From Patescibacteria group bacterium (GTDB taxonomy: Bacteria > Patescibacteriota > Minisyncoccia > Phycocordibacterales > Phycocordibacteraceae), in NCBI GenBank assembly GCA_040384705.1, contig JAZKIU010000001.1, forward strand, positions 542,053 through 606,052: a DNA stretch of 64,000 nt, read 5' to 3'. The translations under genes and the position numbers were made by a program. Below the pieces are notes generated by a model. That model did not search any database, was not told the DNA's origin, and saw nothing but the letters and a program-made list of their open reading frames with translations. Shown here in pieces: positions 586 through 24,374 of the stretch. Position 1 is the stretch's first letter, and each line of letters starts with the position of its first letter.

Positions 586-864
586 AAGATTTACACAGGC
601 GATTTCATATTTCTTTCATATCCCGTTTCGTATAGTACCTGCACGAGGTCGAGGAGAGACGTGTGCGCACGGTCTCACCTTCCTCATACCTTAAGTTCTT
701 TCCCAGACCGGGCTCAACAACAGTTATGCATCGACGATTGCTACGCTTGCAACGACTAGATACGGGATTGTTGTTGACCCCGCGTCAGTAGCGTCCGCTA
801 TTCTCGAGATATGGCGCTACCGCATCCGTTTACAAGTCTGACGCTAATTTGAGCGCCCATATGA

Positions 865-922
865 GACGGAAAAACGCTTAGTGGCCGGCCCGGCTTCGTA
901 CGAGTACGAAGCCGGGCCGGCC
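865..922 (-). terminator. Intrinsic terminator downstream of pentapeptide-repeat gene (19-bp GC-rich stem GGCCGGCCCGGCTTCGTAC/GTACGAAGCCGGGCCGGCC then T-run on minus strand)
   Basis: Perfect long inverted repeat at about 883-922 followed on the minus strand by TTTTTCC. Confidence 0.55.
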
Positions 923-931
923 CTTTGCCGT

Positions 932-1558
932 TCAATCCTTTATATGGAGGCCGAATACCCCGGAAAGATAGAGCGCTTGGCCGGTGGTTACGGTCACGTT
1001 CTCGATGCTCGCCTTGTCCAGGCTGATATCCTCGAGGTTGGAGCCCGGGAACTGCACGTCATCAAGCTTCCCGGAGAGGAATTGCGCGCCCGTGAGATTG
1101 CAGTTACGGAACTCCACCTGCTCGAGCTCGGCGCCCAGGAAATCGCAGCCAACCATCTCGCACTTATCGAACAATACTTCCTTAAGCTTGCTGAAGCGGA
1201 AGTTCGCGCCATCGAGCTTGGAGGAGGCGAAGTGCACGTCCTGGAGCGTTGACTCGGCGAGCGTCGTACCTTGGAAGCGCGTTGATTTTATTAATACGCG
1301 GTCGAGCCGGCATTCGTATAGCTCGGTGCCGGTGAAGCTGCATTTATCGAATATGCAGTCGGTGATATCGGCTTCCGCAGTGTTCGCACCATCGAAGCTG
1401 GTGCTTTCGACCACGCACTTATCAAGGGTGAGCTTCTCGATCTTTCGTTCATCGAAGGCGCCACCTACGAGGATGGACTCCTCCATATATATCTCAGCGC
1501 CTGCCTCGGGCATGGCGTGAGCCAATCTCTCGCGCTTAACGTCGGGCTTGCGGACCAT
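932..1558 (-). CDS. Pentapeptide-repeat protein
   Basis: Translation is almost entirely tandem A(D/N)LxG-like pentapeptides (DVHFASSKLDGANFRFSKLKEVLFDKCEMVGCDFLGAELEQVEF...); ATG at 1558. Confidence 0.85.
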   Translation of the reverse strand: MVRKPDVKRERLAHAMPEAGAEIYMEESILVGGAFDERKIEKLTLDKCVVESTSFDGANTAEADITDCIFDKCSFTGTELYECRLDRVLIKSTRFQGTTLAESTLQDVHFASSKLDGANFRFSKLKEVLFDKCEMVGCDFLGAELEQVEFRNCNLTGAQFLSGKLDDVQFPGSNLEDISLDKASIENVTVTTGQALYLSGVFGLHIKD

Positions 1559-1582
1559 TTCACTATTCTAGCGTATGAGTGA

Positions 1583-1600
1583 TGGGACGATGTTGGAGCC
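1583..1600. repeat. Partial copy (GGGACGATGTTGGAGCC) of the 28-nt module-boundary element
   Basis: 17/18 identity to the 3' half of the element at 1806, 2453 and 3211. Confidence 0.5.
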
Positions 1601-1603
1601 GTA

Positions 1604-1791
1604 ATTGTAAGGTGGTAGTTTGGTATGGGTGCTTGAGCAACCCCAGCGAGGTGATCGGATCAGTATGCCGACCCAAGGCTGTAAGCCAGTGATTATGAGT
1701 GGCCTCGCCGTTAGGTAAGGAAACTCGTCCTGAACGGGACTAACTGGTGCTCAAGCACCCACCCTACGCACCACTGCTGGTGCGTTTTTTG
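1604..1791 (+). ncRNA. Candidate structured small RNA (unknown family) closed by a 13-bp long-range stem and ending in an intrinsic terminator
   Basis: No plausible ORF. GGGTGCTTGAGCA (1627-1639) pairs with TGCTCAAGCACCC (1748-1760), enclosing about 108 nt with internal hairpins (GTCCtgaacGGGAC). Terminator hairpin plus T7 at 1768-1791. Flanked by boundary-element copies. Confidence 0.35.
1768..1791 (+). terminator. Intrinsic terminator (GCACCA-ctgc-TGGTGC + TTTTTTT)
   Basis: Hairpin followed by 7 T. Confidence 0.7.
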
Positions 1792-1805
1792 TAATCACAA
1801 GGTAG

Positions 1806-1833
1806 CTGGGGGTCTGAGACGATGTTGGAACTC
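1806..1833. repeat. 28-nt module-boundary element copy 1 (GCTGGGGGTCTGAGACGATGTTGGAACT)
   Basis: Near-identical to copies at 2453 and 3211. Lies 15 nt after a terminator and 38 nt before a TTGACATATAC promoter. Confidence 0.8.
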
Positions 1834-1871
1834 ATATACGATTCCGGATCCGAATTTGAATAGATTGATAG

Positions 1872-1900
1872 TTGACATATACCTCTTAATATGCTTTTAT
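1872..1900 (+). promoter_or_regulatory. Sigma70-like promoter (TTGACA, 17-nt spacer, extended -10 TGcTTTTAT) upstream of alpha-CTD-like gene
   Basis: TTGACATATAC block shared with the promoter at 2493. Confidence 0.45.
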
Positions 1901-1946
1901 CTTTGCGAAGTACTTTGTTCCAAGACAATAGACATGAGGATGTGTC

Positions 1947-2342
1947 ATGACTTCTCCTTTCAGTGAACACGAAGAGGGATGTGCTCCGCTTCGCCCCTGC
2001 CGCAGCTGCCAAGCTGTGACCTTTCTGAAATCAAAGCTGAACAGCCGAGACTTCTCGGCCTTCATGGGTCTTTGCGGAGTGAGTGTGCCACCCGTGAAGA
2101 CGGAAGACCTCGCTCGCTCGCTCGAGGAGCTCAATTTTTCCGCTCGGACCTTCAACTGCCTGAGGAACGACAACATCAAGACCGTCGGTGACCTCGTTCG
2201 TCAAACGGAAGAAGGCCTGCTTCGAATGCCGAACTTCGGACGTCACGGTCTTGCGGAAATCAAAGAGACGCTGTCCAGTATCGGCCACTGTCTCGGTGAA
2301 CTTCCCTTCGAACCGAGGGTTGTGGCCGACGCTAGCAGCTAG
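1947..2342 (+). CDS. Free-standing RNA polymerase alpha-subunit C-terminal-domain-like protein (HhH) with Cys-rich N-terminal segment
   Basis: Residues about 55-115 (LEELNFSARTFNCLRNDNIKTVGDLVRQTEEGLLRMPNFGRHGLAEIKETL) match the RpoA CTD signature (E. coli ...LELSVRSANCLK...IGDLVQRTE..LLKTPNLGKKSLTEIKDVL). N-terminus has CAPLRPCRSCQ. Confidence 0.7.
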   Translation: MTSPFSEHEEGCAPLRPCRSCQAVTFLKSKLNSRDFSAFMGLCGVSVPPVKTEDLARSLEELNFSARTFNCLRNDNIKTVGDLVRQTEEGLLRMPNFGRHGLAEIKETLSSIGHCLGELPFEPRVVADASS

Positions 2343-2373
2343 CCTAGGGCATCCGGCACGACTCGTAACAAAA

Positions 2374-2410
2374 CCACCCCGCATTTGGATAATGCGGGGT
2401 GAACTTTTTA
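2374..2410 (+). terminator. Intrinsic terminator after alpha-CTD-like gene (CACCCCGCA-loop-TGCGGGGTG + AACTTTTT)
   Basis: 9-bp stem followed by a T-run. Confidence 0.6.
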
Positions 2411-2452
2411 TACAAGGGTTCGAGAATGCTCCAGCCAGTGGGGCTGAGCAGT

Positions 2453-2480
2453 GCTGGGGGTCTGGGACGATGTTGGAACC
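2453..2480. repeat. 28-nt module-boundary element copy 2 (GCTGGGGGTCTGGGACGATGTTGGAACC)
   Basis: Lies between a terminator (2374-2410) and a consensus promoter (2493-2521). Confidence 0.8.
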
Positions 2481-2492
2481 ACTGCGGATATG

Positions 2493-2521
2493 TTGACATA
2501 TACTATTATTTGATATATAAT
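2493..2521 (+). promoter_or_regulatory. Near-consensus sigma70 promoter (TTGACA, 17 nt, TATAAT) upstream of the 201-aa gene
   Basis: TTGACA at 2493-2498, spacer of exactly 17 nt, TATAAT at 2516-2521. GGAGAAGAG RBS precedes ATG 2551. Confidence 0.6.
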
Positions 2522-2550
2522 GGTATTGGAATTGGAAATGGAGAAGAGCG

Positions 2551-3156
2551 ATGTTCCAAGCAATCAAAGATTGGTGGTACAAGCGCCAATCCAAACAGTA
2601 TGCCCGGCTAGTCGTCAAACGGGTGAGGACACAGCCTGAGTCAGGAAATGTGCTTTCTGAACTGGTCTCCCTTAAGCAGGCGATTAAGTTCTGGGGCCTA
2701 ACGTTTACCGACGCAGGCATCACCGAAACTGAATTCAATGCCCTGTGGGAAGAAGCGGTAACACAGAAAGCCCTTAATAGAGACAAATATATCTCCCACA
2801 CGCTACGCGTGTTACGGAAAGAGATCTCTCCCAACCTGTGGCCTCAAATGTCAGAGTGGGGTGCGTTTGAAACGGATCCGTTCTGGCTCGAAGGCCAGAT
2901 CAAAGAATCGGGCCGCTCTCTTGAAGAGTACGGTACCTCGCCCGAAGAGCTTCATCGCTTTCAACGAGAGTGGCACAAGAAGAGCGCTGCTGAAACACTC
3001 GACGAGCTGCGATACAGAACGAGCTACGAACGTCACGGGATGCTGATGAGCATGCTCGTAGAGCACCTTCAGAAGGGCGAACTACCGCCAGAAGAAATCG
3101 GCACTACCCGGGAAGAAATCGAGCAACTTAGGGTTAAGCTCTACGCCAAGCCCTAG
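2551..3156 (+). CDS. Hypothetical protein (201 aa), no recognisable domain
   Basis: Clean ORF with RBS, consensus promoter and its own terminator. Confidence 0.7.
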   Translation: MFQAIKDWWYKRQSKQYARLVVKRVRTQPESGNVLSELVSLKQAIKFWGLTFTDAGITETEFNALWEEAVTQKALNRDKYISHTLRVLRKEISPNLWPQMSEWGAFETDPFWLEGQIKESGRSLEEYGTSPEELHRFQREWHKKSAAETLDELRYRTSYERHGMLMSMLVEHLQKGELPPEEIGTTREEIEQLRVKLYAKP

Positions 3157-3162
3157 AATACT

Positions 3163-3200
3163 CCGTTCGACAAAGCAATTTGTCGGACGGTTTCTTTTTG
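3163..3200 (+). terminator. Intrinsic terminator (CCGTTCGACAAA-gcaa-TTTGTCGGACGG + TTTCTTTTTG)
   Basis: 12-bp stem followed by a T-run immediately after the stop at 3156. Confidence 0.6.
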
Positions 3201-3210
3201 TCTTAAAATT

Positions 3211-3238
3211 GCTGGGGGTCTGGGACGATATTGGAACC
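3211..3238. repeat. 28-nt module-boundary element copy 3 (GCTGGGGGTCTGGGACGATATTGGAACC), array end
   Basis: Follows terminator 3163-3200. No promoter or + strand gene follows. Confidence 0.8.
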
Positions 3239-3246
3239 GTCCTGAG

Positions 3247-3591
3247 CTAATTCCCCACTGTTACGTATACCAAACACACGAGACCAAAGACCGCTGCCCA
3301 TACCACTGCCGCAGAAGCAAAATCCTTGCTCCGTCCAATTGCTTCATCGTGCGTGGGATGGATTTTAGTAAGTGCCGTCTCGATGGCCGAGTTCTGAAGC
3401 TCGGTAACGACAACGAAGAACCAGCTGAATACGAGCAGCAACACCTCACCTGCTGTGAGGTTGAATATGAAATAAACGATAGGGAGTCCTATGACCAGTA
3501 GTGCTGTCTCGATACGAATTGCGTCATCGTGTAGGAACCCGTACTTCAATCCTCGAAATGGATGCGATAGTCGCTTGATCCAATACTCCAT
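3247..3591 (-). CDS. dgkA: Diacylglycerol kinase / undecaprenol kinase family (prokaryotic DgkA)
   Basis: ELQNSAIETA...HDEAIGRSKDFASAAVVWAAV matches the DgkA signature (E. coli EILNSAIEAVVDRIG..HELSGRAKDMGSAAVLIAIIV). Three TM helices. Confidence 0.85.
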   Translation of the reverse strand: MEYWIKRLSHPFRGLKYGFLHDDAIRIETALLVIGLPIVYFIFNLTAGEVLLLVFSWFFVVVTELQNSAIETALTKIHPTHDEAIGRSKDFASAAVVWAAVFGLVCLVYVTVGN

Positions 3592-3637
3592 AGAATCAGT
3601 ATATCTCTAGCTGGGAGATTAGGTTTCGAACCTTAGC

Positions 3638-4414
3638 TTACGACTTAATCCCTGCGCCCTTGTGGAAGAGATAGAGCGTCACGATGAACGCGACAAGAGT
3701 GAGTCCTCCCATGACCCCGAACGCGAGCGAGAGCGGTACGTCAGAGATACCGAGGAATCCGTAGCGGAATGCATTCACCATGTAGAGGATTGGGTTGAAC
3801 AAGGAGACGATGCGGAAGAACTCCGGCAGCTGGTCGATGGAGTAGAAGATACCGCCAAGGTACGTAAGCGGGGTGAGCACGAAGGTCGGCACGATGTTGA
3901 TGGCATCGAACGACTTTGCATAGATGGCATTGATGAGACCGAGGAGCGAGAACAGGAGCGCGGTAAGGAACGCTGCCCCGAAGACGACCGCCATCGAGAA
4001 CAGGGTCAGGTGCGTGAAGAAGAGGGAGACCGCGATAACGATGACGCCCACGAGGAAGGCACGAAGCACGCCTCCCGACACATAGCCTGCAACGACGGTC
4101 CACGACGGCATCGGCGACACGAGTATCTCATGAATGGTCTTGAGCCACTTCGCGAAATAGAAGGTGGAGACGGTATTCATGTAGGAGCTCGTGATGACGG
4201 ACATCATGACGAGGCCCGGCACGATGAACTGTATGTACGGGAACCCGTCGATTGCGTCCACCTGGCTCCCGATGAACGTACCGAATATGGCGAAGTAGAG
4301 CGCCATGGTGATAGCGGGCGGAAGCAGCGTCTGGGACCAGATGCGTATGATGCGCATGAAGTCCTTGCGGACCATGGTGTAGTAACCGATGAGGATTGGA
4401 GAGCGGGTAGCCAT
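3638..4414 (-). CDS. ABC-2 type transporter permease
   Basis: Six-TM protein of ABC-2 family type; start abuts the stop of the upstream ATPase gene. Confidence 0.85.
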   Translation of the reverse strand: MATRSPILIGYYTMVRKDFMRIIRIWSQTLLPPAITMALYFAIFGTFIGSQVDAIDGFPYIQFIVPGLVMMSVITSSYMNTVSTFYFAKWLKTIHEILVSPMPSWTVVAGYVSGGVLRAFLVGVIVIAVSLFFTHLTLFSMAVVFGAAFLTALLFSLLGLINAIYAKSFDAINIVPTFVLTPLTYLGGIFYSIDQLPEFFRIVSLFNPILYMVNAFRYGFLGISDVPLSLAFGVMGGLTLVAFIVTLYLFHKGAGIKS

Positions 4415-4415
4415 A

Positions 4416-5357
4416 TTATTTCTTTATGAGGTTCACGAATACTTCTTCGAGGCGGCTTCCGCTGTTGCGGATGTTCGCTATCTGGATGCCATTGGCCGAT
4501 ATCTTGCGCATGGCGTCGTTCACGGTCTCGCCCGGCTTAAGCGTTATCTCGAGCGTATTCTCGTCGGTACGCTTCACGTTGAGGTCGCGGAGCAATACCA
4601 TCGTCGCGTCCTTTATCGGCTCAGTGGCGTCGAGGATGAGCGTGACGTAGTTGAGCTTAGTGACGAGCTCCTTCACGGTCCCCTCCTCGATGATGACGCC
4701 CCCATTGATGATGGCGACCCGATTCGCGAGCATTTCAGCCTCCTCGAGGTAGTGGGTAGTGAGCACGATGGTGGTGCCGGAAGCCGATAGCTCGCGGAGG
4801 AAGTCCCACATCCCGCGACGCAGCTCGACGTCGACGCCTGCGGTCGGCTCGTCGAGAAGGAGCACCTTCGGCTCGTGGATGAGCGCGCGGGCGATGAGGA
4901 GACGACGCTTCATGCCTCCTGAGAGGTGCTGGGCCTGCGCATCCTTCTTCTCCCAGAGCCCGAGGTCCTTGAGAATCTTCTCCGCGCGCACGAGCGCGTC
5001 TGCACGGCTCACGCCGTAGTATCCGGCCTGGGTGACGATGATATTGATGACCTTCTCGAAGATATCGAAGTTGAACTCCTGGGGCACGAGACCGATATAC
5101 GACTTCGCTTTGTCGGGGTTCGTCGTCGCATCCACTCCGTGAATCTCGACCGTCCCCTCGCTCTTGTTCACGAGGCCCGAAAGTATGCCGATGAGGGTCG
5201 TCTTTCCGGCGCCGTTAGGGCCAAGGAGCGCAAGGAACTCGCCCTCTTTGACCGAGAGCGACACGCCCTTCAGGGCTTCTACGGGCGGCTGCTTCTTATC
5301 GGCTGGATAGGTCTTCGTGAGGTCGGTTACATGGATCGCATTGGTCTTTTCTGGCAT
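4416..5357 (-). CDS. ABC transporter ATP-binding protein
   Basis: Walker A GPNGAGKTT, signature LSGGMKRR, Walker B LLLDEPTAGVD, H-loop. Start trimmed to ATG 5357 (MPEKTNAIH...). The longer ORF to 5906 would overlap the GtrA gene and adds only an acidic non-homologous N-terminus. Confidence 0.85.
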   Translation of the reverse strand: MPEKTNAIHVTDLTKTYPADKKQPPVEALKGVSLSVKEGEFLALLGPNGAGKTTLIGILSGLVNKSEGTVEIHGVDATTNPDKAKSYIGLVPQEFNFDIFEKVINIIVTQAGYYGVSRADALVRAEKILKDLGLWEKKDAQAQHLSGGMKRRLLIARALIHEPKVLLLDEPTAGVDVELRRGMWDFLRELSASGTTIVLTTHYLEEAEMLANRVAIINGGVIIEEGTVKELVTKLNYVTLILDATEPIKDATMVLLRDLNVKRTDENTLEITLKPGETVNDAMRKISANGIQIANIRNSGSRLEEVFVNLIKK

Positions 5358-5405
5358 AGATAGAGCGATTATATCATCGGCCGTAGAACAAGCTATTATG
5401 TGCAT

Positions 5406-5852
5406 ATGTCGGCCTTCCGCTCGCCTGCTTTCGTTCGATTCCTTCGCTATGCAGGCGTAGGCGTGACTACGCTCGCGTTCGATCTGCTCCTGCTCGCGTT
5501 CGTCATCGAGGTCTTCCATATCCCCTACTACACGGCGGTGCCGCTCTGCTTCGCTATCGCGGTCTCCATCAACTACCTCATCAGTCGCTTTCATGTCTTC
5601 CAGGGCACGACGCGGAGTCTCCATGCCGGCTACTTCTATTTCATCCTCTCGGCTGGAACGGGTGCCGTACTCACCACGAGCGGCGTCGCGCTCCTCGTCG
5701 AGCTTCTGGGCTTCCACTACCTCCCCGCTCGCCTCCTGGTCGCTGGGTTCGTCGGCATATTGAACTACCTCCTGAACCTGCATTTCAACTTCAAGGTCGT
5801 CGGACTGCATCCATCTCGGGAAAATATGAAGAAAGTGGTGGATATCCCATAG
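5406..5852 (+). CDS. GtrA-family membrane protein (polysaccharide synthesis / lipid-linked sugar translocation accessory)
   Basis: Four-TM about 148 aa protein with GtrA-like pattern (RFxxVGxx ... NYLLNLHFNF). ATG 5406 (ORF-tool start at 5400 is GTG). Confidence 0.75.
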   Translation: MSAFRSPAFVRFLRYAGVGVTTLAFDLLLLAFVIEVFHIPYYTAVPLCFAIAVSINYLISRFHVFQGTTRSLHAGYFYFILSAGTGAVLTTSGVALLVELLGFHYLPARLLVAGFVGILNYLLNLHFNFKVVGLHPSRENMKKVVDIP

Positions 5853-5888
5853 GGAGAAACGGCACCAGCACGCTATTCTGGAAGGAGC

Positions 5889-6236
5889 ATGCTCGAAAAC
5901 CACCACAAAGAAGACCGTCCCTGGGGCTCATTCGAACGATTCACCTCGAACGAGCCAGCGACGGTGAAAATACTCCACGTGGAAGCGGGGAAGCGCTTCT
6001 CGCTCCAGAAGCACGCACACCGCGCGGAGTACTGGCGCGTCATCGAGGGCTCCGGTCGCGCTACTTCCGGTGACACCGTGCAGGATGTGGCGGTCGGCGA
6101 CACTATAGAGATACCGGTGGGTGCCGCGCACCGGCTTGAGGGCGGCCCTGAGGGTGTACGAGTGCTTGAAATAGCGCTCGGTCATTTCGATGAAGGAGAT
6201 ATCGAACGACTCGAGGACGACTTCGGGCGCACCTAA
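5889..6236 (+). CDS. Cupin-domain protein of the mannose-6-phosphate isomerase type II C-terminal kind
   Basis: RPWGSFE...KRFSLQKHAHRAEYWRVIEGSG...GDTIEIPVGAAHRL matches the cupin of ManC/XanB-type PMI. Good GGAAGGAG RBS. Confidence 0.75.
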   Translation: MLENHHKEDRPWGSFERFTSNEPATVKILHVEAGKRFSLQKHAHRAEYWRVIEGSGRATSGDTVQDVAVGDTIEIPVGAAHRLEGGPEGVRVLEIALGHFDEGDIERLEDDFGRT

Positions 6237-6241
6237 GAGCC

Positions 6242-7396
6242 ATGACCGAGATAACGCTCCTTCTCGTACACGTAAGCGCGCTTGCGATAACGCTTCTATT
6301 CCTCTTGGGAGCGTGGGAGGTGCTGCGTTCCGATAACCTCAAGGCGCGTGTCCGGGCGGTGCTCGATGCGCTCGGCCTCAAGCGTGTGGACCATAACCCG
6401 ATACTCTCGCGTACGAACTACGCATGGGAAGCGGAAGCGGTAATGAATCCGGCCGCGGTCGAGGTCGGTGACCGTACGCATCTCTTCTATCGCGCTATCG
6501 GGAACGATGGCGTGTCCCGCATTGGCTATGCATCGTCTGGAAACGGAACGCATTTCGATGAGCGACTCCCCTATCCCGTGTTCGCGCTCACTAATGCGCA
6601 GAGGCAACCGGCAAGCGCTCGCTCTAGGATGGAAAAGGAACATCCGGAGCTCGTAGCGTCGGGCGGCAGCTGGGCTGGGTGCGAGGATCCACGGGCCGTG
6701 GTCATCGAAGACCGCGTCTACCTCTCTTTCAACGCGTTCTCCGATTGGGGTTCGCTTCGTATAGGCGTGACATCCCTTTCGCTTCCCGACCTCGCAGCGA
6801 AGCGATGGAACTGGAAGCGACCCGTCTTCCTGTCTCCACCTAATACCGTGCAGAAGAATTGGGTCCTGTTCCCGAAGAAGATAAACGGGAAATTCGCGAT
6901 GTTCCAGGGATTGGAATTCCAGAACCGCGATAAAGCGCAGATAGCATATCTCGATACGCTCGACCGCGAGCCAAACGAGTATCTCGATAGCGACGCACGC
7001 TTCAGGAACAACGAATCCTATTCGACCGTATGGGACAGCCGTATACGCGGCGCAGCTACCCCTCCTATCGAGACGCCGCATGGTTGGCTCACCCTCTACC
7101 ACGCGAACGATGCGCGCGAACCAGAGCGCTATAAGATAGGCGCGATGCTGCTCGACCTTCTCGATCCTTCTAAGGTGCTGCTGCGCTCTCCGGCACCCAT
7201 ACTCGAGCCGGATGCGCACTACGAGAACGATGGTAAGCCAGGCATCGTGTACGCGTGCGGGGCGACGGTGCGCGATGGCCAGCTCCGCGTGTATTACGGC
7301 GGCGGCGACAAGACGGTCTGCACCGCCTCCACCCCCCTCGCTTCTTTCATGAAGACGCTTCTAGCTAATAAAACGCCACGACTGGCGCTCGCATAG
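6242..7396 (+). CDS. Glycoside hydrolase family 130 (DUF377) beta-mannoside phosphorylase-like, with N-terminal membrane anchor
   Basis: Hallmark GCEDPR motif, HLFYRAIG..IGYA and YHANDA motifs. N-terminal TM helix. Confidence 0.85.
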   Translation: MTEITLLLVHVSALAITLLFLLGAWEVLRSDNLKARVRAVLDALGLKRVDHNPILSRTNYAWEAEAVMNPAAVEVGDRTHLFYRAIGNDGVSRIGYASSGNGTHFDERLPYPVFALTNAQRQPASARSRMEKEHPELVASGGSWAGCEDPRAVVIEDRVYLSFNAFSDWGSLRIGVTSLSLPDLAAKRWNWKRPVFLSPPNTVQKNWVLFPKKINGKFAMFQGLEFQNRDKAQIAYLDTLDREPNEYLDSDARFRNNESYSTVWDSRIRGAATPPIETPHGWLTLYHANDAREPERYKIGAMLLDLLDPSKVLLRSPAPILEPDAHYENDGKPGIVYACGATVRDGQLRVYYGGGDKTVCTASTPLASFMKTLLANKTPRLALA

Positions 7397-7403
7397 ATTC
7401 CGT

Positions 7404-9329
7404 ATGCTCATCGTCAAACGCTCACCGAGCAATCCGCTCATCATCCCGTCCCGCGCCCGCTCCTTCGAGGCGGTCGGTACCTGCAATCCGTCCGTGGTAC
7501 GTAAGGATGGCGTGACCCACCTGTTCTACCGCGCGTTCGCGGAGCCCGATGCGCTCCTTACCCCCGACCGAGGTTTCTCCACCATTGGCTATGCAAAGAG
7601 CAGGAGCGAGGATTCTTTCGATGAGCATGCGCAAGTCATCTCCCCCACCGAGGAGTGGGAGAAGTATGGGTGCGAGGACCCGCGAGCGACCTGTTTCGAA
7701 GGCAAATGGTACGTCTTCTATACCGCGCTCGGTGGCTACCCGTTCGGTCCCGACAATATCAAGGTTGCGGTCGCTATCGGCGACAGGCCTGAGGCGCTCA
7801 CCGAGAAGCATCTCATCACGCCCTTCAATGCCAAGGCAGCGACGCTCTTCCCGGAGCGCGTGAATGGCGAGGTCGTCCTTCTCCTCACCGCGCACACCGA
7901 CTTCACGGAAGCAAACCCACGCCCGACTATCGGTATCGCGCGCGCCAAGGAAGTCGCTGAGTTCTTCGACCCTGCGTTCTGGGATAGATGGCACAAGGAC
8001 ATCGCAGAACACGCCATACCTGACGTCAGGCGTGCTGACACCGAGCACATGGAGGTGGCGGCGACGCCAGTGCGCATCAAGGAGGGATGGCTCCTTGTCT
8101 ATTCCCACATCCAGGATTATTACGATGAACCGAACCGTATATTCGGCGTCGAAGCGCTCGTGCTCGATGCGAATGACCCGAGGAGAATACTGATGAAGAC
8201 CGCATACCCGTTCATGGTGCCGGAGGAATCCTATGAGCGGTACGGGCTCGTCACGAATGTCGTATTCCCTACCGGCGTCTGTATCGAGGGCGACACGCTC
8301 CACATCTACTACGGCGCAGCCGACACTTCCTGCGCTATGGCGTCCTTATCACTTCCGCACCTTCTCTCGACGATGAGCGAGGAATCGCGCGCCGCATTCA
8401 TGCAGCGACTACCGGAGAACCCGATCATGAGCCCTATCGAGGAGCATGGATGGGAGTCCCGTTCAGTATCGAATGCCGCTGCCATAGATCTCGACGGGTC
8501 GGTACACCTCGTATATCGCGCGATGGGGGCGGATAACACATCGGTTATGGGATATGCGCGTCTTGAAGACGGGTTGCATATAGATGAGCGTCTTGAGGAG
8601 CCCGTGTACGCACCGAGACATGAGTCGGAACAGAAGCAGGGCAAGCCCGATGGAAATTCCGGAACCGAAGACCCGCGCCTTACGCTCATCGATGGCGTGC
8701 TCACGCTCGCATACACCGCGTACGATGGCGTGCACGAGCCACGCGGTGCGATATCGACTATCAGTCCTGAGGATTTCGTCGCGAAGAACTTCAACTGGTC
8801 GCCTCCAGTCTTGGTGACACCAGCTCGGGTCGGCGATAAGGATGTGTGCATATTCCCTGAGCGTATCGATGGGAAGATAGTCGTCATCCATCGTATTGAT
8901 CCGGATATCTGTGTTGAGCGCTTTGATTCCCTCGAGCAGATGGAGACTATCGAGCGCTCGGTGGAGATAATGGGGCCCCGAAGCGGGATGTGGGATGACA
9001 TCAAGGTGGGTGCTGCGGGTCCCCCTATCAAAGTGAGCGAGGGGTGGCTGTTCATCTACCACGGCGTGGGGAGCGACAAGGTGTATCGCCTTGGTGCGAC
9101 GCTTCTGAGCGAGGACGCGAGTACCGTCATCGCACGCACCGTAGCTCCGATACTCGAGCCGGTGCCGGAATGGGAGCGCGTCGGCATGGTGAACAACGTG
9201 GTCTTCTCGTGCGGGGCCGTTGTGCGTGGCGATACCCTCATCATCTATTACGGTGGTGCGGATACAAGGATAGGCATCGCTACCCTCTCCGTGAAAGAAC
9301 TTATGAGCCGTCTCCTCCCTTCCCTATGA
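7404..9329 (+). CDS. Tandem double GH130 (DUF377) glycoside phosphorylase/hydrolase fusion
   Basis: Two complete GH130 modules (GCEDPRATCF.. and GTEDPRLTLIDG..), each with HLxYRA and five-bladed beta-propeller signature motifs. Confidence 0.85.
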   Translation: MLIVKRSPSNPLIIPSRARSFEAVGTCNPSVVRKDGVTHLFYRAFAEPDALLTPDRGFSTIGYAKSRSEDSFDEHAQVISPTEEWEKYGCEDPRATCFEGKWYVFYTALGGYPFGPDNIKVAVAIGDRPEALTEKHLITPFNAKAATLFPERVNGEVVLLLTAHTDFTEANPRPTIGIARAKEVAEFFDPAFWDRWHKDIAEHAIPDVRRADTEHMEVAATPVRIKEGWLLVYSHIQDYYDEPNRIFGVEALVLDANDPRRILMKTAYPFMVPEESYERYGLVTNVVFPTGVCIEGDTLHIYYGAADTSCAMASLSLPHLLSTMSEESRAAFMQRLPENPIMSPIEEHGWESRSVSNAAAIDLDGSVHLVYRAMGADNTSVMGYARLEDGLHIDERLEEPVYAPRHESEQKQGKPDGNSGTEDPRLTLIDGVLTLAYTAYDGVHEPRGAISTISPEDFVAKNFNWSPPVLVTPARVGDKDVCIFPERIDGKIVVIHRIDPDICVERFDSLEQMETIERSVEIMGPRSGMWDDIKVGAAGPPIKVSEGWLFIYHGVGSDKVYRLGATLLSEDASTVIARTVAPILEPVPEWERVGMVNNVVFSCGAVVRGDTLIIYYGGADTRIGIATLSVKELMSRLLPSL

Positions 9330-10075
9330 TTCCTTCCGTCGTCATGTTCGATATAGATAAGACGCTTGCGAGAAGCAAGTCGGATATAGAGCCATTGATG
9401 AGCGAAGCGCTCGCGCGCCTCTTGATAGCGACGAAGGTCGGCATCATCTCGGGCGGCAAGCTCGAGCAGTTCATGAAGCAGGTGGTCGGCAAGCTTCCGC
9501 CTGGTACTCCCTTGTTCAACCTGTATCTGCTGCCAACTTCGGGCGGCGCGCTCTACGAATACCGCAGCGCATGGATGCCGATATACCAGGAACTGCTTGA
9601 GGCCGACGAGGTCGAGAGAATACAGGCAGCGATGGAGGAGGTCATCGATACGTGCAGCGTCATTGATCGCTCCCACCCGCCGTACGGCGACCGTATCGAG
9701 GTGCGTGGTCCGCAAGTGACGCTTTCGGCGCTCGGGCAGCAGGCGCCCGTTAAGGAGAAGGAAGCGTGGGACCCGGTGGGCACCAAGCGCGAGATACTGC
9801 GCGCAGCGCTTGCGAAGCGTCTTCCGGAGTTCGATGTGAAGCGCGGGGGATCTACCTCCATAGACGTCACGAAGCGAGGCGTGAACAAGGCGTTCGGGGT
9901 ACGGAAGCTTAGCGAGCACCTTTCAATCCCTGTAGGGACGATGCTCTATGTAGGCGATGCGCTCGCTCCGGGCGGTAACGACGAAGTAGTGAAGGAGACG
10001 GGCATTCCCACGCGCTCCGTGCTCGATCCTGACGAGACGCTTCTCGTGATCGAAGGACTTCTGAAGGGCGCCTGA
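9326..10075 (+). CDS. Eukaryotic-type phosphomannomutase (HAD-IIB, PMM family)
   Basis: FDIDKTL...KVGIISGGKLEQF and YVGDALAPGGNDEVV...VLDPDETL align closely with PMM2 (FDVDGTLT...KIGVVGGSDFEKV; FFGDKTMPGGNDHEIF). ATGA overlap with the preceding gene. Confidence 0.8.
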   Translation: MIPSVVMFDIDKTLARSKSDIEPLMSEALARLLIATKVGIISGGKLEQFMKQVVGKLPPGTPLFNLYLLPTSGGALYEYRSAWMPIYQELLEADEVERIQAAMEEVIDTCSVIDRSHPPYGDRIEVRGPQVTLSALGQQAPVKEKEAWDPVGTKREILRAALAKRLPEFDVKRGGSTSIDVTKRGVNKAFGVRKLSEHLSIPVGTMLYVGDALAPGGNDEVVKETGIPTRSVLDPDETLLVIEGLLKGA

Positions 10076-10101: not shown

Positions 10102-11091
10102 ATGCGCTATTTCCTCATTCCCACCGTCGTCTCTTCGCTCATCATGCTCGGCATCTTGCTGTGGCTCGGGCCCGTCGCGTTCGTGACCGCGCTTCTTCTT
10201 ACCGTGCTCGAGGTCACGCTTTCGTTCGATAACGCGGTGGTGAACGCCCGCGTGCTCATGCAGATGAGCGAGAAGTGGCAGCAGCGCTTCCTCACCTGGG
10301 GCATCCTCATCGCGGTCTTCGGCACCCGCCTCGTGCTTCCCATCCTCATCGTGAGCGTTTCGGTGTGGAGTTCGCCCTGGCTCGTCGCGCAGCTTGCGGC
10401 GTTCCATCCTGAGGAATACGGGCACCTGCTCGAGGGCGCCAAGCACGGCATCTATGCCTTCGGCGCTGCGTTCCTCCTCATGGTGTCGCTCAAGTACTTC
10501 TTCGACGAATCGAAGGAGGTGCACTGGATAGGTATCATCGAGAGGAACCTATCAAAGCTCGGACGTATCGAGGCGCTTGAGATAGGGGTCGCGCTGGTGA
10601 CGCTCGTGGGGCTTTCCTTTCTCGTCCCGAACGAGCAGGCCATCGTGCTCTCAGCCGGTATCATCGGCATCATCCTGTTCATATTCATGCAGGGACTCGC
10701 GAGCTCGTTCTCGGCGACCATGACTAATACTGCGGCGAGCGGGCTTGCGCTCTTCCTGTACCTGAACGTGCTCGACTCCGCGTTCTCGCTTGATAGCGTG
10801 GTGGGCGCGTTCGCGCTCTCGACCTCCATTCCTATCATCGTGGCAGGTCTTGGTATCGGTGCATGGTACGTCAGGAGCATGACCATCTACTTCGTGAAGA
10901 AGAATACGCTCGATACGCTCGTATACCTTGAGCATGGCGCGCACTGGGCGATCTTCGGTCTCGCGGCTTCCATGTTCGCAGGGCTTCTCTTCGAAGTTCC
11001 GGAGATAATCACGGGCGGTATCGGTCTCGCGTTCGTTGCAGCTGCGTACTACTCATCGCTGAGGCTTCGGAAGCATACGAAGACGGCATAG
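10102..11091 (+). CDS. DUF475-family integral membrane protein
   Basis: LEVTLSFDNAVVNA motif and about 8 TM helices. Confidence 0.7.
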   Translation: MRYFLIPTVVSSLIMLGILLWLGPVAFVTALLLTVLEVTLSFDNAVVNARVLMQMSEKWQQRFLTWGILIAVFGTRLVLPILIVSVSVWSSPWLVAQLAAFHPEEYGHLLEGAKHGIYAFGAAFLLMVSLKYFFDESKEVHWIGIIERNLSKLGRIEALEIGVALVTLVGLSFLVPNEQAIVLSAGIIGIILFIFMQGLASSFSATMTNTAASGLALFLYLNVLDSAFSLDSVVGAFALSTSIPIIVAGLGIGAWYVRSMTIYFVKKNTLDTLVYLEHGAHWAIFGLAASMFAGLLFEVPEIITGGIGLAFVAAAYYSSLRLRKHTKTA

Positions 11092-11194
11092 CCCTCGATT
11101 GTGAGGGCTTGACATATTTGAGTATATATGTATATAATACACCCGAATGTACGGGCGTCCTGCCCTTTGATTTGACTCCCGGAAGGAGAAAAAC

Positions 11195-11524
11195 ATGAAG
11201 CTTTTCGCTACCCTCGCGACCTGCCTGTCGCTCGCCGCTAGCCCGGCGTTTGCGCAGTCGACCAGCCCCGGCGCGTTCCCGCCGATGACGCCGTCCGCGG
11301 CGGTCATGGCCTCGCCGTGCGACAAATTGCTCACCTGGCGCCTGCAGCTCTACAGCGACGAGCTCGTGATCCGGGACTTGGAATCCCGGATGAAGCAGAC
11401 GCCCAATGTCTCCCAATCCATGTGGGACAGCCTGACCGAGATCAAGAAGAATATCATGGCGAGCAAGGCGAATCAGACCCAGCTCGAGAAGTACTGCGCG
11501 ATCGCTGCGCGCCTTCCGCGCTGA
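11195..11524 (+). CDS. Small secreted hypothetical protein (signal peptide)
   Basis: N-terminal MKLFATLATCLSLAASPAFAQ signal peptide, GGAAGGAG RBS, followed by a strong terminator. Confidence 0.6.
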   Translation: MKLFATLATCLSLAASPAFAQSTSPGAFPPMTPSAAVMASPCDKLLTWRLQLYSDELVIRDLESRMKQTPNVSQSMWDSLTEIKKNIMASKANQTQLEKYCAIAARLPR

Positions 11525-11630: not shown

Positions 11631-13286
11631 ATGGATATTACTGCGAGACTCGCAGGCGTGATGAAGGGCGACCTAGCCACCGACAGCGAGACGCTCGCGA
11701 AAATGTCGCGCGATACGAGCGTCTTCGAACGTACGCCGTCCTTGGTGGTGTACCCGAAGGATACGCAGGATGTCTCCGTACTCGTGAAGACTATCGCTAG
11801 TGCAAAAGCTGCAGGCGACGATGTGTCAGTCACCGCACGCTCAGCGGGCACCGATATGTCAGGCGGTCCCCTCACTGACTCTGTAGTCGCTGTGTTCACG
11901 AAATACATGAACAAGGTGCATGAGGTCGCTGACGGCTATGCAGTAGCCGAGCCAGGCGTCTACTACCGCGACTTTGAGCGCGAGACGCGCAAGGTGAATA
12001 ACCAGCTGCTTCCCTCGTATCCGGCTTCGCGCGAGCTCGCGGCGCTCGGCGGGATAGTGAACAACGACTCAGGCGGCGAGCGCACGCTCGAATACGGCAA
12101 GACCCATGACTATGTCGAGGAGCTCGAAGTGGTGCTTTCTGATGGCTCTATAACCACCCTCAAAGCACTTACACCCACCGAGCTCGATGGAAAGCGTGCG
12201 CTCCATGGTCTCGAGGGCGATATATACCGGAAGATGAGTGCGCTCATCATGGATAATCTTGATGCGATACGGGATGCGAAGCCGAAGGTCTCCAAGAACT
12301 CTGCTGGGTACGCGCTCTGGGACGTGCTCGATAGCAAGCACGGTACTTTCAATCTCGCGAAGCTCATCACGGGCGCGCAGGGCACGCTCGCGCTCACGAC
12401 CAAGATGAAGCTACGACTCGTGAAGGAGCAGGGGTATCGCGCCATGCTCGTCGTATTCCTGAAGGATATCGACCACCTTCCGGAGATAGTGCATAAGGTA
12501 CTTCCGTATAACCCGGAGTCGTTCGAGAGCTACGACGACCAGACATTCAAGCTCGCCATCAAGTTCCTTCCGCAGATGCTTTCGCAGATGGGGCTCATGC
12601 GTGCTATACGGCTCGGGTTCTCCTTCCTACCGGAGGTCGGCATGGCAGCACGGGGCGGTATACCGAAGCTCATACTCATGGCCGAGTTCTCCGAGGATAC
12701 GCACGAGGAAGCGCTCAAGAAAGCGAAGCAGGCGCAAGAAGCTATTTCCCATCTGGGGGTTGTATCGAGCATAAAGGAGGACGAGAAGGCCGCGGAGAAG
12801 TATTGGATAGTGCGCAGGGAGAGCTTCGCGCTCCTGCGGAAGAACTCGCACGGCCTCTACGCATCCCCATTCATCGACGACTTCGTGGTGCCGGTGGATT
12901 CATATCCAACGTTCATGCCAGAACTGAACGCGCTTCTCGCCGAATATAAGGATAAGTTCATCTATACCATCGCTGGCCACATCGGTAACGGTAATTTCCA
13001 TATTATTCCGCTCATGGATCTCACGAAGGAGGAATCGAGGAAGACTATCCTCGAGCTGTCGCCACGCGTCTATGAGCTCGTTATCAAGTACGGTGGCACG
13101 ACCACAGGAGAACACAACGATGGCATCATCCGCACGCCGTACCTCCCTATGCTCTTTGGCGAGAAAGTAGTGGCGCTCTTCGCAGAGACCAAGCGCATAT
13201 TCGATCCGAACAATATCTTCAATCCAGGCAAAAAGGTCGGTGGTACCTTCGAGGATATCGAGCGGTCGATACTTACGAGCCTCTAA
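11631..13286 (+). CDS. FAD-linked oxidase (GlcD / D-lactate dehydrogenase family, PCMH-type FAD-binding domain)
   Basis: About 550 aa. N-terminal FAD_binding_4-like region (VVYPKDTQDVSVLVKTA...VTARSAGTDMSGG) and C-terminal FAD-oxidase_C features (HIGNGNFH, GGTTTGEHNDG). Confidence 0.85.
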   Translation: MDITARLAGVMKGDLATDSETLAKMSRDTSVFERTPSLVVYPKDTQDVSVLVKTIASAKAAGDDVSVTARSAGTDMSGGPLTDSVVAVFTKYMNKVHEVADGYAVAEPGVYYRDFERETRKVNNQLLPSYPASRELAALGGIVNNDSGGERTLEYGKTHDYVEELEVVLSDGSITTLKALTPTELDGKRALHGLEGDIYRKMSALIMDNLDAIRDAKPKVSKNSAGYALWDVLDSKHGTFNLAKLITGAQGTLALTTKMKLRLVKEQGYRAMLVVFLKDIDHLPEIVHKVLPYNPESFESYDDQTFKLAIKFLPQMLSQMGLMRAIRLGFSFLPEVGMAARGGIPKLILMAEFSEDTHEEALKKAKQAQEAISHLGVVSSIKEDEKAAEKYWIVRRESFALLRKNSHGLYASPFIDDFVVPVDSYPTFMPELNALLAEYKDKFIYTIAGHIGNGNFHIIPLMDLTKEESRKTILELSPRVYELVIKYGGTTTGEHNDGIIRTPYLPMLFGEKVVALFAETKRIFDPNNIFNPGKKVGGTFEDIERSILTSL

Positions 13287-13309
13287 CTGCCTCGTGATAA
13301 AGTACGGAC

Positions 13310-14041
13310 ATGAGCGAAGAATTCCTGGCGCACGAGGCGCTCGTCCAACAATTGAACGACCCTGCGCAGCGTGCAGCGTACGCTAAGCCGTATGACGGAT
13401 ACAAGGTCGGCTGGGTAGCGTCCATGCTCGGCTGGCTGCTCGTCAGTTCGGGCACGCTCGTATACGGCAAGAAGCCATCCTATGCAAAATTCAAGGCAAT
13501 CGAGGTCATCGCCCGCATTCCTTACCAATCGTGGGAAGTCGCTACCTATACTCTCCTGACTGCGCTCTATAAGAACGAGAAGCGCGCCATCGAGCTCGCG
13601 AAGACAAGCACCTTCAGCCGCTTCGCCCAGGACAACGAAACAATGCACGTCGTCGTGCTCTCGCAGATGGTATGCAAGATGAAGGCGCAGCGGTTCTTCA
13701 AGCACACATTCATCCCGCTCCTGTTCGCCTTCTTCTACTTCTGGACCATCTATCTCCTCTATATCGTGTACCGAAAGGCGGCGCTCGAGCTGAACTACAT
13801 TTTCGAGAACCATGCGTACCATCAATACTCGGAATTCCTGGAGCTCTATGGCGAGGAGATGAAGCACCGCGTCTGTATGTACGAGTTCCTCTCCTTCTAC
13901 GGCCGCAATGTGGTCACTGAATACGAGTTCTTCGAGTCGGTCAGGAACGATGAGCTCATCCACCGCAATATGACTATTCGGGAGCTCGAAGCAAGGGGTA
14001 TAAGCTGCGTTCCTAAGGAAGGGGGCTCCATCGCATACTAA
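13310..14041 (+). CDS. Alternative oxidase-like (AOX/PTOX family) membrane-associated diiron-carboxylate protein
   Basis: Four iron-ligand motifs in AOX order and spacing: IEVIARIP (cf. LETVAGVP), DNETMH (NERMH), FENHAYHQYSEF (LEEEAxxTYT), RNDELIHRN (RADEAHHRD). Hydrophobic helices lie between motifs 2 and 3. Confidence 0.6.
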   Translation: MSEEFLAHEALVQQLNDPAQRAAYAKPYDGYKVGWVASMLGWLLVSSGTLVYGKKPSYAKFKAIEVIARIPYQSWEVATYTLLTALYKNEKRAIELAKTSTFSRFAQDNETMHVVVLSQMVCKMKAQRFFKHTFIPLLFAFFYFWTIYLLYIVYRKAALELNYIFENHAYHQYSEFLELYGEEMKHRVCMYEFLSFYGRNVVTEYEFFESVRNDELIHRNMTIRELEARGISCVPKEGGSIAY

Positions 14042-24025: not shown

Positions 24026-24088
24026 TACATGGGAGTCAGCCCACGGATATCTCCCGCATGACCGACGCTTGTGGCGTCGGTCATGTCC

Positions 24089-24352: not shown

Positions 24353-24374
24353 ATGCGTAAAGTATAGCTCGCCC

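Follow-up and report, generated by a model that had tools for sequence, protein, structure and literature searches.

A conserved Patescibacteria gene module with three GH130 paralogues predicted to act on β-1,2-mannosides, one of canonical phosphorylase type and two with altered phosphate sites

Mannoside phosphorylases of family GH130 working together with a mutase and an isomerase are an already known type of system. The described enzymes closest to those reported here are Teth514_1788 and Teth514_1789 of Thermoanaerobacter sp. X-514, the GH130_6 β-1,2-oligomannan and β-1,2-mannobiose phosphorylases, which are encoded as side-by-side paralogues within a mannose-phosphate gene cluster (PMC4264767). 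Related to them in fold and reaction centre are the GT108 enzymes MTP1-7 of the Leishmania mannogen cycle (6q4x and 6q50). The Leishmania paralogues are split into transferases using GDP-mannose and phosphorylases using mannose 1-phosphate (Man1P), and together they build and degrade a cytosolic β-1,2-mannan (PMC12814180, PMC10913872). Here we describe a GH130 gene module located in a stretch of 64,000 nucleotides from a Patescibacteria group bacterium (assembly GCA_040384705.1, contig JAZKIU010000001.1, positions 542,053 to 606,052 of the forward strand), which is referred to as the window. The module is composed of a cupin, a membrane-anchored GH130 protein, a GH130–GH130 fusion protein and a mutase of the HAD type. 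Patescibacteria, the candidate phyla radiation (CPR), to whose Paceibacteria (Parcubacteria) the host belongs, have tiny genomes and a poorly understood carbon metabolism.

The three GH130 domains of the module are designated T-type (the anchored protein), N-type and C-type (the N- and C-terminal domains of the fusion). All of them have their best sequence and fold matches in Teth514_1788 and Teth514_1789, with which they share the Glu/Lys determinants of β-1,2 specificity and, in the case of the C-type domain, a short L2 loop. The two Thermoanaerobacter enzymes are full phosphorylases and separate proteins, whereas the module contains three paralogues, two of them without the full set of phosphate ligands. 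A pair of the three is fused and the remaining one is tethered to the membrane. The gene surroundings differ as well. The Teth514 cluster includes an ABC importer with a solute-binding protein, a GH5 enzyme, ManC and a GT4 enzyme, whereas the module has no importer and harbors the HAD mutase and a cupin of the phosphomannose isomerase (PMI) type in place of ManC. The new features are the organisation in three paralogues, two of which have a non-canonical active site, the variable fusions, the membrane tether and the breadth of occurrence in CPR. No description linking Patescibacteria or Paceibacteria to a GH130 module was found in the literature searched. Two GH130 genes were mentioned in passing for a Microgenomates genome (PMC7143001), and CAZy contained four GH130–GH130 sequences in 2018, each module of which was placed in the same network node, with no further analysis (PMC7660257).

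A preliminary description of this DNA had proposed five co-directional genes on the + strand at positions 5406–10075, and all five open reading frames (ORFs) are present there. The first gene encodes a GtrA-like small membrane protein of 148 residues (5406–5852; PF04138 GtrA_DPMS_TM, 7e-15). It is followed by the stand-alone PMI-type cupin (115 residues, 5889–6236; PF01050 MannoseP_isomer, 1.6e-21), the N-terminally anchored T-type GH130 protein (384 residues, 6242–7396; PF04041 Glyco_hydro_130, 1.6e-34) and the GH130–GH130 fusion (641 residues, 7404–9329), which matches PF04041 in two stretches (2e-86). The N-type domain corresponds to fusion residues 1–329 (7404–8390) and the C-type domain to residues 330–641 (8391–9329). 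The fifth gene encodes a HAD-IIB phosphohexomutase of the PgmH/eukaryotic phosphomannomutase (PMM) type (249 residues, 9326–10075; PF03332 PMM, 1.5e-9). The junctions between the five genes measure 36, 5, 7 and −4 nt. The start codon of the fifth gene is the ATG at 9326, which lies within a longer ORF (9044–10075) and overlaps the TGA stop codon of the fusion as ATGA. No promoter-like site and no + strand terminator-like site was detected inside the five-gene run. A public contig encoding an identical fusion protein, which was annotated independently, contains the same five genes with the same lengths (148/115/384/641/249 residues).

Relatives of the fusion are encoded in at least 594 genomes in a scan of one genome per GTDB species. 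The fusion homologues comprise at least 120 full-length cluster representatives with 54–95% identity, and the named ones originate from metagenome-assembled genomes of Parcubacteria, Paceibacterota, Kaiserbacteria and similar groups. The window proteins were compared by tblastn with the best 80 of the at least 594 loci, almost all of which are labelled as Patescibacteria/Paceibacteria (Kaiser-, Adler-, Nomura-, Taylor-, Zambryski- and Lloydbacteria). Among these 80 loci, 71 have enough sequence and 59 have long, full flanks. The anchored GH130 gene is located directly upstream of the fusion gene on the same strand in 68 of the 71 loci. The HAD mutase adjoins the module in 47 of the 59 full-flank loci (33 downstream and 14 upstream) and the cupin does so in 37 of them, with protein identities of 45–67% across the conserved neighbourhoods. 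The order of the anchored GH130 and fusion genes is kept in these relatives; gene order was a point that the preliminary description had raised as a check. Clustering of all ORFs of the 80 loci yielded no other family in more than 15 of them. Based on these synteny counts, the conserved core consists of the cupin, the anchored GH130, the double GH130 and the HAD mutase, and the coherent unit proposed earlier, in which β-mannoside phosphorolysis is combined with a phosphohexomutase and a cupin of the PMI type, is conserved in evolution. GtrA, which had been counted as a member of the pathway, does not belong to this unit, as it is adjacent in only one of the 59 full-flank loci and in two of the 80 loci overall (L001 and L060). 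The shared strand, the tight junctions (5, 7 and −4 nt) and the kept neighbourhood are found for the four core genes. GtrA lacks the kept neighbourhood and is a lineage-specific neighbour, as are an ABC-2 exporter and a DUF475/TerC gene on either side of the run.

The closest PDB structures of all three GH130 domains are those of Teth514_1788 (9fj8; E-values of 3e-57 for the C-type, 2e-33 for the N-type and 6e-36 for the T-type domain) and Teth514_1789 (7fip; 1e-55 for the C-type and 1e-34 for the T-type domain). The AlphaFold2 model of the fusion contains two complete β-propellers, whose relative arrangement is predicted with confidence (pLDDT 92.7, pTM 0.91). Foldseek confirms the five-bladed β-propeller fold of GH130, with TM-scores of 0.87–0.91 to the Teth514 structures (9gph and 7fir). 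The two propellers and the two PF04041 stretches confirm the tandem fusion noted previously. GT108 is only a distant structural relative (Foldseek 1e-10, 14–17% identity).

We read the diagnostic positions in a joint alignment of 26 C-type, 26 N-type and 19 T-type domains with the Teth514, Lin0857 and Uhgb_MS sequences, which were rebuilt from printed alignments and whose numbering was checked at K184, R202 and R242 of Uhgb_MS. Larger family sets comprised 119 fusion homologues and 65 anchored T-type orthologues. According to Li et al. 2020 (PMC7660257), GH130 enzymes use an Asp as proton donor, a Glu/Lys pair marks β-1,2 specificity and an Arg/His pair binds phosphate. The reference sites in UhgbMP are the donor D104, the +1 subsite positions Y103 and R150, the sugar ligands R59 and D304, and the phosphate ligands R168 and H231 (PMC7660257), to which R202 and the His of the YH motif correspond in Uhgb_MS. 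Cuskin et al. 2015 (PMC4599007) likewise tied a signature of Asp, Glu plus Lys, Arg and Asp to the proton donor and β-1,2 specificity. In the module, the Asp donor, the Glu/Lys pair, the Arg and the Asp are invariant in all three types, both in the joint alignment (26/26 C-type, 26/26 N-type and 19/19 T-type) and in the family sets (119/119 and 65/65). All three domains are predicted to be active on β-1,2-mannosides. The preliminary description had assigned them to β-mannosides in general. Its GH130 phosphorylase-type unit stands, but the Glu/Lys pair points to β-1,2 rather than β-1,4 linkages.

On the phosphate side, K184, R202 and R242 of Uhgb_MS hold the phosphate(s), and R202 occupies a "switch" position that is shared with GT108 (Ladeveze et al. 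2025, PMC12814180). The same study reported that removal of the switch Arg (R202A) lowers the phosphorylase activity 16-fold, and that three rather than four phosphate contacts accompany transferase-type behaviour in GT108/GH130. The C-type domain conserves R372, E422, D423, K479, H496-R497, K534, H553, Y561-R562 and D620. H496-R497 and H553, together with K534 and Y561-R562, are present in 26 of 26 C-type sequences. Along the alignment, H496 precedes the switch Arg R497, K534 provides the Arg/Lys ligand with a Gly two residues after it, and H553, Y561, R562 and the Gly of the YRLGA motif follow. The L2 loop is short, with the same length as in Teth514_1788 and Teth514_1789. The Arg/His pair that characterizes GH130 phosphorylases in Li et al. 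2020 is found in the C-type domain but in neither the N-type nor the T-type domain. With this complete signature, the C-type domain is assigned as a canonical inverting β-1,2-mannoside phosphorylase, and the earlier prediction of a β-mannoside phosphorylase yielding Man1P is supported for this domain.

The N-type domain has intact sugar subsites and a dismantled phosphate pocket. Its sugar-side residues R43, E91, D92, K144 and D307 are invariant in the 119 homologues, whereas four of the five compared phosphate-ligand positions are lost. The switch Arg is replaced by T162 (Thr in 117 and Ser in two of the 119) and is preceded by Leu or Phe. The Arg/Lys ligand, corresponding to the R242 column of Uhgb_MS, is replaced by H215 (117/119), and the His ligand by S234 (Ser in 114, Ala in three and Cys in two). 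The Tyr ligand becomes F247 (119/119) with G248 instead of the following Arg, and the Gly of YRLGA becomes E250 (119/119). Moreover, a glutamate (E217) is located two residues past the Arg/Lys column in 118 of the 119 sequences, where the C- and T-type domains have Gly. In the AlphaFold2 model, the segment H215-M-E217-V lies on the strand matching K534-V-G-A of the C-type domain, and both H215 and E217 face the phosphate-ligand side. A placement of E217 at the exact Arg/Lys ligand position was ruled out by the joint alignment, in which H215 is the equivalent residue and E217 lies two residues further on the same strand face. The L2 loop is nine residues longer than that of Teth514 and contains an invariant H164-T-D166. 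All N-type sequences share the hallmark of a missing switch Arg, a Glu two residues after the Arg/Lys column, and replacement of the His by Ser, Ala or Cys and of the Tyr by Phe or Trp.

A comparable logic is known from the GH130_3 β-1,2-mannosidases (BT3780 and BACOVA_03624; 5a7v and 3qc2), hydrolases that have no basic phosphate residues, carry carboxylates in the pocket instead and keep the Asp/Glu/Lys/Asp residues (Cuskin et al. 2015, PMC4599007). The N-type domain differs from them in lying outside their clade, in having one invariant pocket Glu against the carboxylate base residues E227/E268, and in lacking a signal peptide. The NCBIfam BT3780 model, against which ten fragments were scanned, gave only rough profile coordinates, from which the equivalence of E217 and E268 is no more than a rough estimate, and the central region of the N-type domain gave no match to this model. 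Even when encoded alone, an N-type protein has its best match in Teth514_1788 (1e-58). Membership of the N-type in the GH130_3 clade was rejected on these two grounds, and because of them the loss of its phosphate site looks like an event independent of the known GH130_3 mannosidases. The fusion protein has no N-terminal hydrophobic segment and no secretion signal.

The T-type domain has the (near-)invariant residues R84, E148, D149, K205, H287, Y297 and D356 in 65 orthologues. Its switch position is occupied by Ser (35), Asn (15), Ala (9), Gly (5) or Asp (1) and by Arg in none of the 65; the window copy has G223. The preceding residue is His in 62 of 65 orthologues and Gln in the window copy. 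The column of Uhgb_MS R242 contains Ile, Val, Thr or Met, with an invariant Arg (R269) at the next position. H287 (65/65), Y297 with K298 next to it, the Gly two residues after the Arg/Lys column and the Gly of YRLGA are retained, and the L2 loop is about four residues longer than in Teth514. The insertion EFQNRDK was considered as a source of the missing Arg and ruled out, since it is absent in 41 of the 65 orthologues. The switch Arg separates the two classes of Leishmania GT108 enzymes, and the T-type lacks this Arg, which agrees with the decision tree in PMC12814180; the strict Leishmania transferases (MTP1/2), however, have His at this position, where the T-type has Ser, Asn, Gly or Ala.

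The N-terminal membrane anchor reported earlier for the 384-residue GH130 protein is confirmed by a hydrophobic segment at residues 4–22 (nt 6251–6307), with a mean Kyte-Doolittle hydropathy of 2.57. A hydrophobic helix near the N-terminus is found in 43 of the 65 T-type orthologues, with few or no charges before it and several Lys/Arg residues after it. In the remaining orthologues, about a third and mostly from low-GC Nomurabacteria-like genomes, a Lys-rich tail of 40–70 residues replaces the helix. Examples of the latter are found at 5770–6999 of L047, 5717–6994 of L054 and 5720–6994 of L071, two solutions thus occurring at one position. Following the positive-inside rule, the Lys/Arg residues after the helix suggest that the catalytic domain of the T-type is most likely cytoplasmic and kept close to the inner membrane face by the helix or the Lys-rich tail, neither of which resembles a secretion signal.

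Taken together, only the C-terminal domain of the fusion retains the phosphate ligands. The "triple GH130 dosage" of the preliminary description is not supported, because two of the three domains lack an intact phosphate site, and the set is better read as three old paralogues that divide the labour among them. That description had also named what would overturn it, namely GH130-like domains without phosphate-binding residues that fall into hydrolase clades. Such residues are indeed absent from the T- and N-type domains, but neither of these falls into a known hydrolase clade. Judged from their residues, they are two additional conserved GH130 paralogues in which the sugar site is intact but the phosphate site is altered, which had not been foreseen.

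In a neighbour-joining tree, the N-, C- and T-type domains each form a monophyletic group, and the internal topologies of the three groups run parallel. The identity is 52–55% within a type, 30–31% between the N-type and the others, and 38% between the T- and C-types. The monophyly, the parallel topologies and these identity levels point to an ancient triplication, older than the radiation of these lineages, followed by co-inheritance of the three types and by long-term purifying selection that kept each of the three versions of the active site. Three monophyletic types under selection argue against decay or a simple gene dosage.

With the N-type domain as query, a full HMMER scan of 1.84 billion representatives, in which hits were typed by three domain hidden Markov models and the diagnostic columns, revealed further arrangements. 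These include a single T-N-C protein of 971 residues (P0121), a permuted C-N fusion (P0129), and a T-C fusion with a transmembrane anchor that is followed by a HAD mutase gene (P0161). Stand-alone N-type proteins also occur (P0134-P0136, P0145, P0147 and more distant ones), and one such gene adjoins another that encodes, at its C-terminal end, a GH130 domain with a T/C-like score. In P0122, the N-C fusion carries an extra Lys/Glu-rich C-terminal region of about 400 residues (residues 630–1029) with no Pfam match. The T-N-C gene is located in L082 (region 18–8916), directly downstream of and overlapping a gene for a ManC-type mannose-1-phosphate guanylyltransferase. The same co-directional run contains a processive-type GT2 of 652 residues, an epimerase/dehydratase and a UDP-glucose/GDP-mannose dehydrogenase. 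In addition, a cytidylyltransferase-like nucleotidyltransferase of about 160 residues (PF01467, HxGH motif) adjoins the module in 15 of the 80 loci, usually in the order nucleotidyltransferase-HAD-cupin-T-fusion. Its nearest structures are ethanolamine-phosphate and glycerol-3-phosphate cytidylyltransferases and the "lipopolysaccharide core biosynthesis protein" 3glv, and it could activate a sugar phosphate. The loci concerned are L037, L044, L045, L047, L048, L054, L056, L063, L065, L069, L071 (4021–4512), L073, L075, L076 and L079. No homologue of ManC, GT2 or the cytidylyltransferase was found in the 64-kb window.

The mutase aligns end to end (residues 3–245) with PgmH of L. lactis, a HAD-type α-phosphoglucomutase (4bnd; 4e-37), and matches PMMs of eukaryotes and parasites more weakly (1e-11 to 5e-6). 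PF03332 covers profile positions 1–219 of 221, and TIGR01484 scores 61.6 bits. The protein has the full-length similarity and the four motifs of HAD-IIB phosphohexomutases. These motifs are kept in 47 orthologues (FDlDgTL, SGg, K and GD..GGND) and read FDIDKT, SGG, K and GDALAPGGND in the window copy. The label "eukaryotic-type phosphomannomutase" given earlier is correct as to the HAD-IIB PMM family, but the closest solved relative is PgmH, with the PMMs second. The window enzyme carries all four HAD motifs and differs from PgmH and eukaryotic PMM1/2 in being embedded in a mannoside module. Genuine phosphomannomutases belong to this family, and dual activity on mannose and glucose phosphates is common among the HAD-type PMMs (PMC8808168).

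The cupin matches PF01050 with 77 bits (cut-off 23.6) over profile positions 7–116 of 116. It corresponds to positions 354–466 of 467 in TIGR01479 GMP_PMI, that is, to the C-terminal PMI domain of type II enzymes combining PMI with mannose-1-phosphate guanylyltransferase (GMP). The motifs of type II PMI domains (PWG, SLQxHxxRxE(H/Y/F)W and DIxRxxDxYGR) are present, and in 42 orthologues they are kept as rPWG.F, SLQ.H..R.EfW and LEI..G.FdE.DI.R.eD.yGR. This full-profile match and the conserved motifs agree with the earlier naming of a type II PMI-like cupin, and the protein is a putative mannose-6-phosphate isomerase. A PDB search yielded no close solved structure for it.

Based on family membership and conserved residues, the C-type domain would catalyse the reaction β-1,2-(Man)n + Pi ⇄ (Man)n-1 + α-Man1P, the HAD mutase would interconvert Man1P and mannose 6-phosphate (Man6P), and the cupin would interconvert Man6P and fructose 6-phosphate (Fru6P). 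The route Fru6P ⇄ Man6P ⇄ Man1P ⇄ β-1,2-mannoside, similar to that of the preliminary description, is supported by the families and catalytic residues of these enzymes, although two GH130 domains in the module lack the phosphate site. The N- and T-types would be specialised paralogues of ancient origin, which have kept the binding of β-1,2-mannosides while treating the anomeric position differently. The N-type would most likely cleave without phosphate, by hydrolysis serving trimming or primer release, given the absence of phosphate ligands and the invariant Glu in its pocket. The T-type would most likely be transferase-like, a priming or membrane-proximal member, in view of the missing switch Arg and the rule of three versus four phosphate contacts (PMC12814180). 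As the enzymes have no secretion signals, the chemistry of the module is predicted to be intracellular.

We tentatively favour, at slightly less than even confidence, a module that links Fru6P to β-1,2-mannosides inside the cell, near the membrane, and serves the turnover of an endogenous, mannogen-like β-1,2-mannan or oligomannoside. With modest confidence an internal pool is preferred over scavenging, because no importer is present, the parts appear cytoplasmic, β-1,2-mannan is scarce outside cells and the genomes are reduced. The link to activated mannose in relatives, namely ManC beside the T-N-C fusion and the nucleotidyltransferase beside the module in 15 of the 80 loci, points in the same direction.

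Several points weigh against this reading. All four core genes stand together in only 31 of the 59 full-flank loci. The literature searched contains no report of β-1,2-mannan from Patescibacteria, whereas the Leishmania polymer is known, and the function of the module is a prediction from sequence. The catalytic roles proposed for the N- and T-types rest on alignment to solved phosphorylases, E217 is no more than a candidate general base, and under a different strand register R269 of the T-type could bring back one contact to phosphate. Moreover, active-site residues alone do not settle whether a GT108 enzyme acts as glycosyltransferase or glycoside phosphorylase (Franceus et al. 2024, PMC10913872), and calls of this kind made from residues are accordingly insufficient. 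Sequence does not decide between mannose and glucose for the mutase, whose closest solved relative is a phosphoglucomutase, and that PF01050 cupins on their own have PMI activity is an assumption taken over from the bifunctional enzymes. Finally, the ManC linkage fits equally well with Man1P being salvaged into GDP-mannose, a route suggested for Thermoanaerobacter (PMC4264767).

The last point leads to the strongest alternative, which was the model of the preliminary description and which we consider somewhat unlikely. Here, β-1,2-mannooligosaccharides from outside the cell, such as those of fungal or host glycans, would be imported and phosphorolysed, with Man1P entering glycolysis via the mutase and the cupin without expense of ATP or being converted into GDP-mannose. 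The N-type would be an accessory mannosidase and the T-type a chain-length specialist. GH130 pathways that follow such a salvage logic are well established, and it has been suggested for Teth514_1788 and Teth514_1789, paralogues that differ in chain-length preference (PMC4264767). The canonical phosphorylase residues of the C-type domain, the adjacent mutase and PMI-type cupin, and the ManC gene beside the triple fusion are all in line with it. However, no importer is conserved with the module among the 80 loci, and the sole ABC system nearby is of exporter type and lineage-specific. Despite the environmental rarity of β-1,2-mannans, at least 594 reduced genomes have retained the module. Pure phosphorolysis does not predict that two of the three domains lack a phosphate site, and the free mannose released by a mannosidase would need a kinase, which the module does not encode.

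The second alternative, which appears quite improbable, places the module in the synthesis of an envelope glycan or glycolipid. The tethered T-type would assemble a β-1,2-mannoside, with a lipid or the membrane providing the acceptor, the fusion would edit its length, and GtrA together with the ABC-2 system would export the product. The membrane tether or polybasic tail is conserved, and in the window the module has GtrA and the ABC-2 exporter as neighbours. However, GtrA is adjacent in two of the 80 loci and the exporter only in the closest relatives. Genes for GT2, DedA/VTT, UppP-like and PAP2 proteins lie near the module in several loci, and the T-N-C fusion is preceded by genes for a processive-type GT2, an epimerase and a sugar dehydrogenase, but no envelope family exceeds 15 of the 80 loci. 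A precedent for the organisation is the cyclic β-1,2-glucan synthase Cgs (GT84, cyclisation and GH94 domains), a membrane-bound multi-domain enzyme in which a phosphorylase is fused to non-phosphorolytic domains and the GH94 domain acts as a length ruler (bioRxiv 10.1101/2023.10.30.564714). This analogy is one of organisation only, since Cgs has neither the folds nor the sugar in common with the module. Furthermore, GH130 enzymes are inverting and would use α-Man1P or GDP-mannose, not β-linked polyprenyl-phosphate-mannose, and the PMI and mutase pair would be equally required for any use of mannose.

It is very unlikely that the N- and T-types are non-catalytic, the former being a covalent pseudo-dimer partner or carbohydrate-binding module for the C-type and the latter a membrane-docking scaffold beside one active enzyme. 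In favour of this view, Teth514_1788 and Uhgb_MS are dimeric and the L2 of the partner shapes the donor site in Uhgb_MS (PMC12814180), the L2 of the N-type domain is longer and conserved, the inter-domain arrangement is confidently predicted (pTM 0.91) and the phosphate ligands are lost. Against it, the donor Asp and all the −1/+1 sugar residues are invariant in both types (119 and 65 sequences), which would be unnecessary in a scaffold. The replacements themselves are invariant (E217, F247, E250 and D166), as in a selected new pocket rather than decay, and the N-type also occurs as stand-alone genes.

In the most specific form of the internal-polymer reading, which we regard as rather unlikely as a whole, Paceibacteria/CPR would both make and turn over an internal β-1,2-mannan through one complex, with the T-type as a transferase-like initiator near the membrane, the N-type as phosphate-independent trimmer and the C-type as phosphorylase. 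Such a complex would provide an ATP-sparing carbon buffer and define two new functional subfamilies of GH130, and an internal polymer would be the first mannogen-like reserve outside trypanosomatids. Should the internal-polymer reading fail, any use of β-1,2-mannosides by these bacteria would still run mainly through the module. With its occurrence in at least 594 species-level genomes, the four-gene module is likely central to sugar handling in many CPR. It also represents a natural experiment, in which three paralogues combine one sugar site with three phosphate pockets and several fusion permutations, and it bears on what makes the GH130/GT108 scaffold a phosphorylase, a transferase or a hydrolase.

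The genes flanking the five-gene run differ from the core in their distribution. Upstream and divergent, an ABC-2 pair is encoded on the − strand (3638–5357), consisting of a YadH/DrrB-like permease (3638–4414) and a DrrA-like ATPase (4416–5357), with matches to PF01061, NF011648 (4e-103) and TIGR01188 drrA (9e-75). It was considered as a mannoside importer and ruled out, as it is an exporter of the DrrAB/YadGH type without a solute-binding protein. Long antisense ORFs are common in this DNA, such as one of 496 residues at 4416–5906 on the − strand that runs across GtrA, of which the real ABC ATPase takes up only 313 residues (4416–5357); these ORFs are by-products of the high GC content at third codon positions and are not genes. 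Downstream, a DUF475/TerC-family membrane protein is encoded on the + strand (10102–11091; PF04332, 1.5e-90). Its gene may be co-transcribed with the module, as the gap is 26 nt and no terminator precedes it. It is adjacent to the module in none of the 80 loci, and a homologue occurs in three of them, 1–3 kb away and on the opposite strand.

After the DUF475/TerC gene lies a σ70 promoter matching the consensus at 12 of 12 positions (11109–11138; TTGACA, an 18-nt spacer and TATAAT), directly followed by a terminator-like hairpin (11153–11165). An ORF of 109 residues (11195–11524) begins with the signal-peptide-like sequence MKLFATLATCLSLAASPAFAQ. Further downstream, a FAD-linked oxidase of the GlcD/YdiJ type is encoded at 11631–13286 of the window and recurs just downstream of the module in 11 loci according to the ORF clustering. 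The ORF of 243 residues after it (region 11631–14041) has a weak match to alternative oxidases (PF01786, 23.5 bits).

The window as a whole is an ordinary segment of a CPR chromosome, with HisRS, primase, σ70 and RNase R genes. Pfam annotation of 20 further ORFs identified housekeeping genes only, and a search of the window for tRNA and Rfam features gave none. A low-GC island (24000–30000) stands out with a GC content of 0.44–0.52, compared with about 0.58–0.60 elsewhere, and is probably a mobile or horizontally acquired segment. It carries a DNA methyltransferase of 905 residues (25888–28605; PF01555), followed by a convergent ORF of 334 residues (28602–29606) with a weak, below-threshold match to a Cas12f1/TnpB-like TNB domain.

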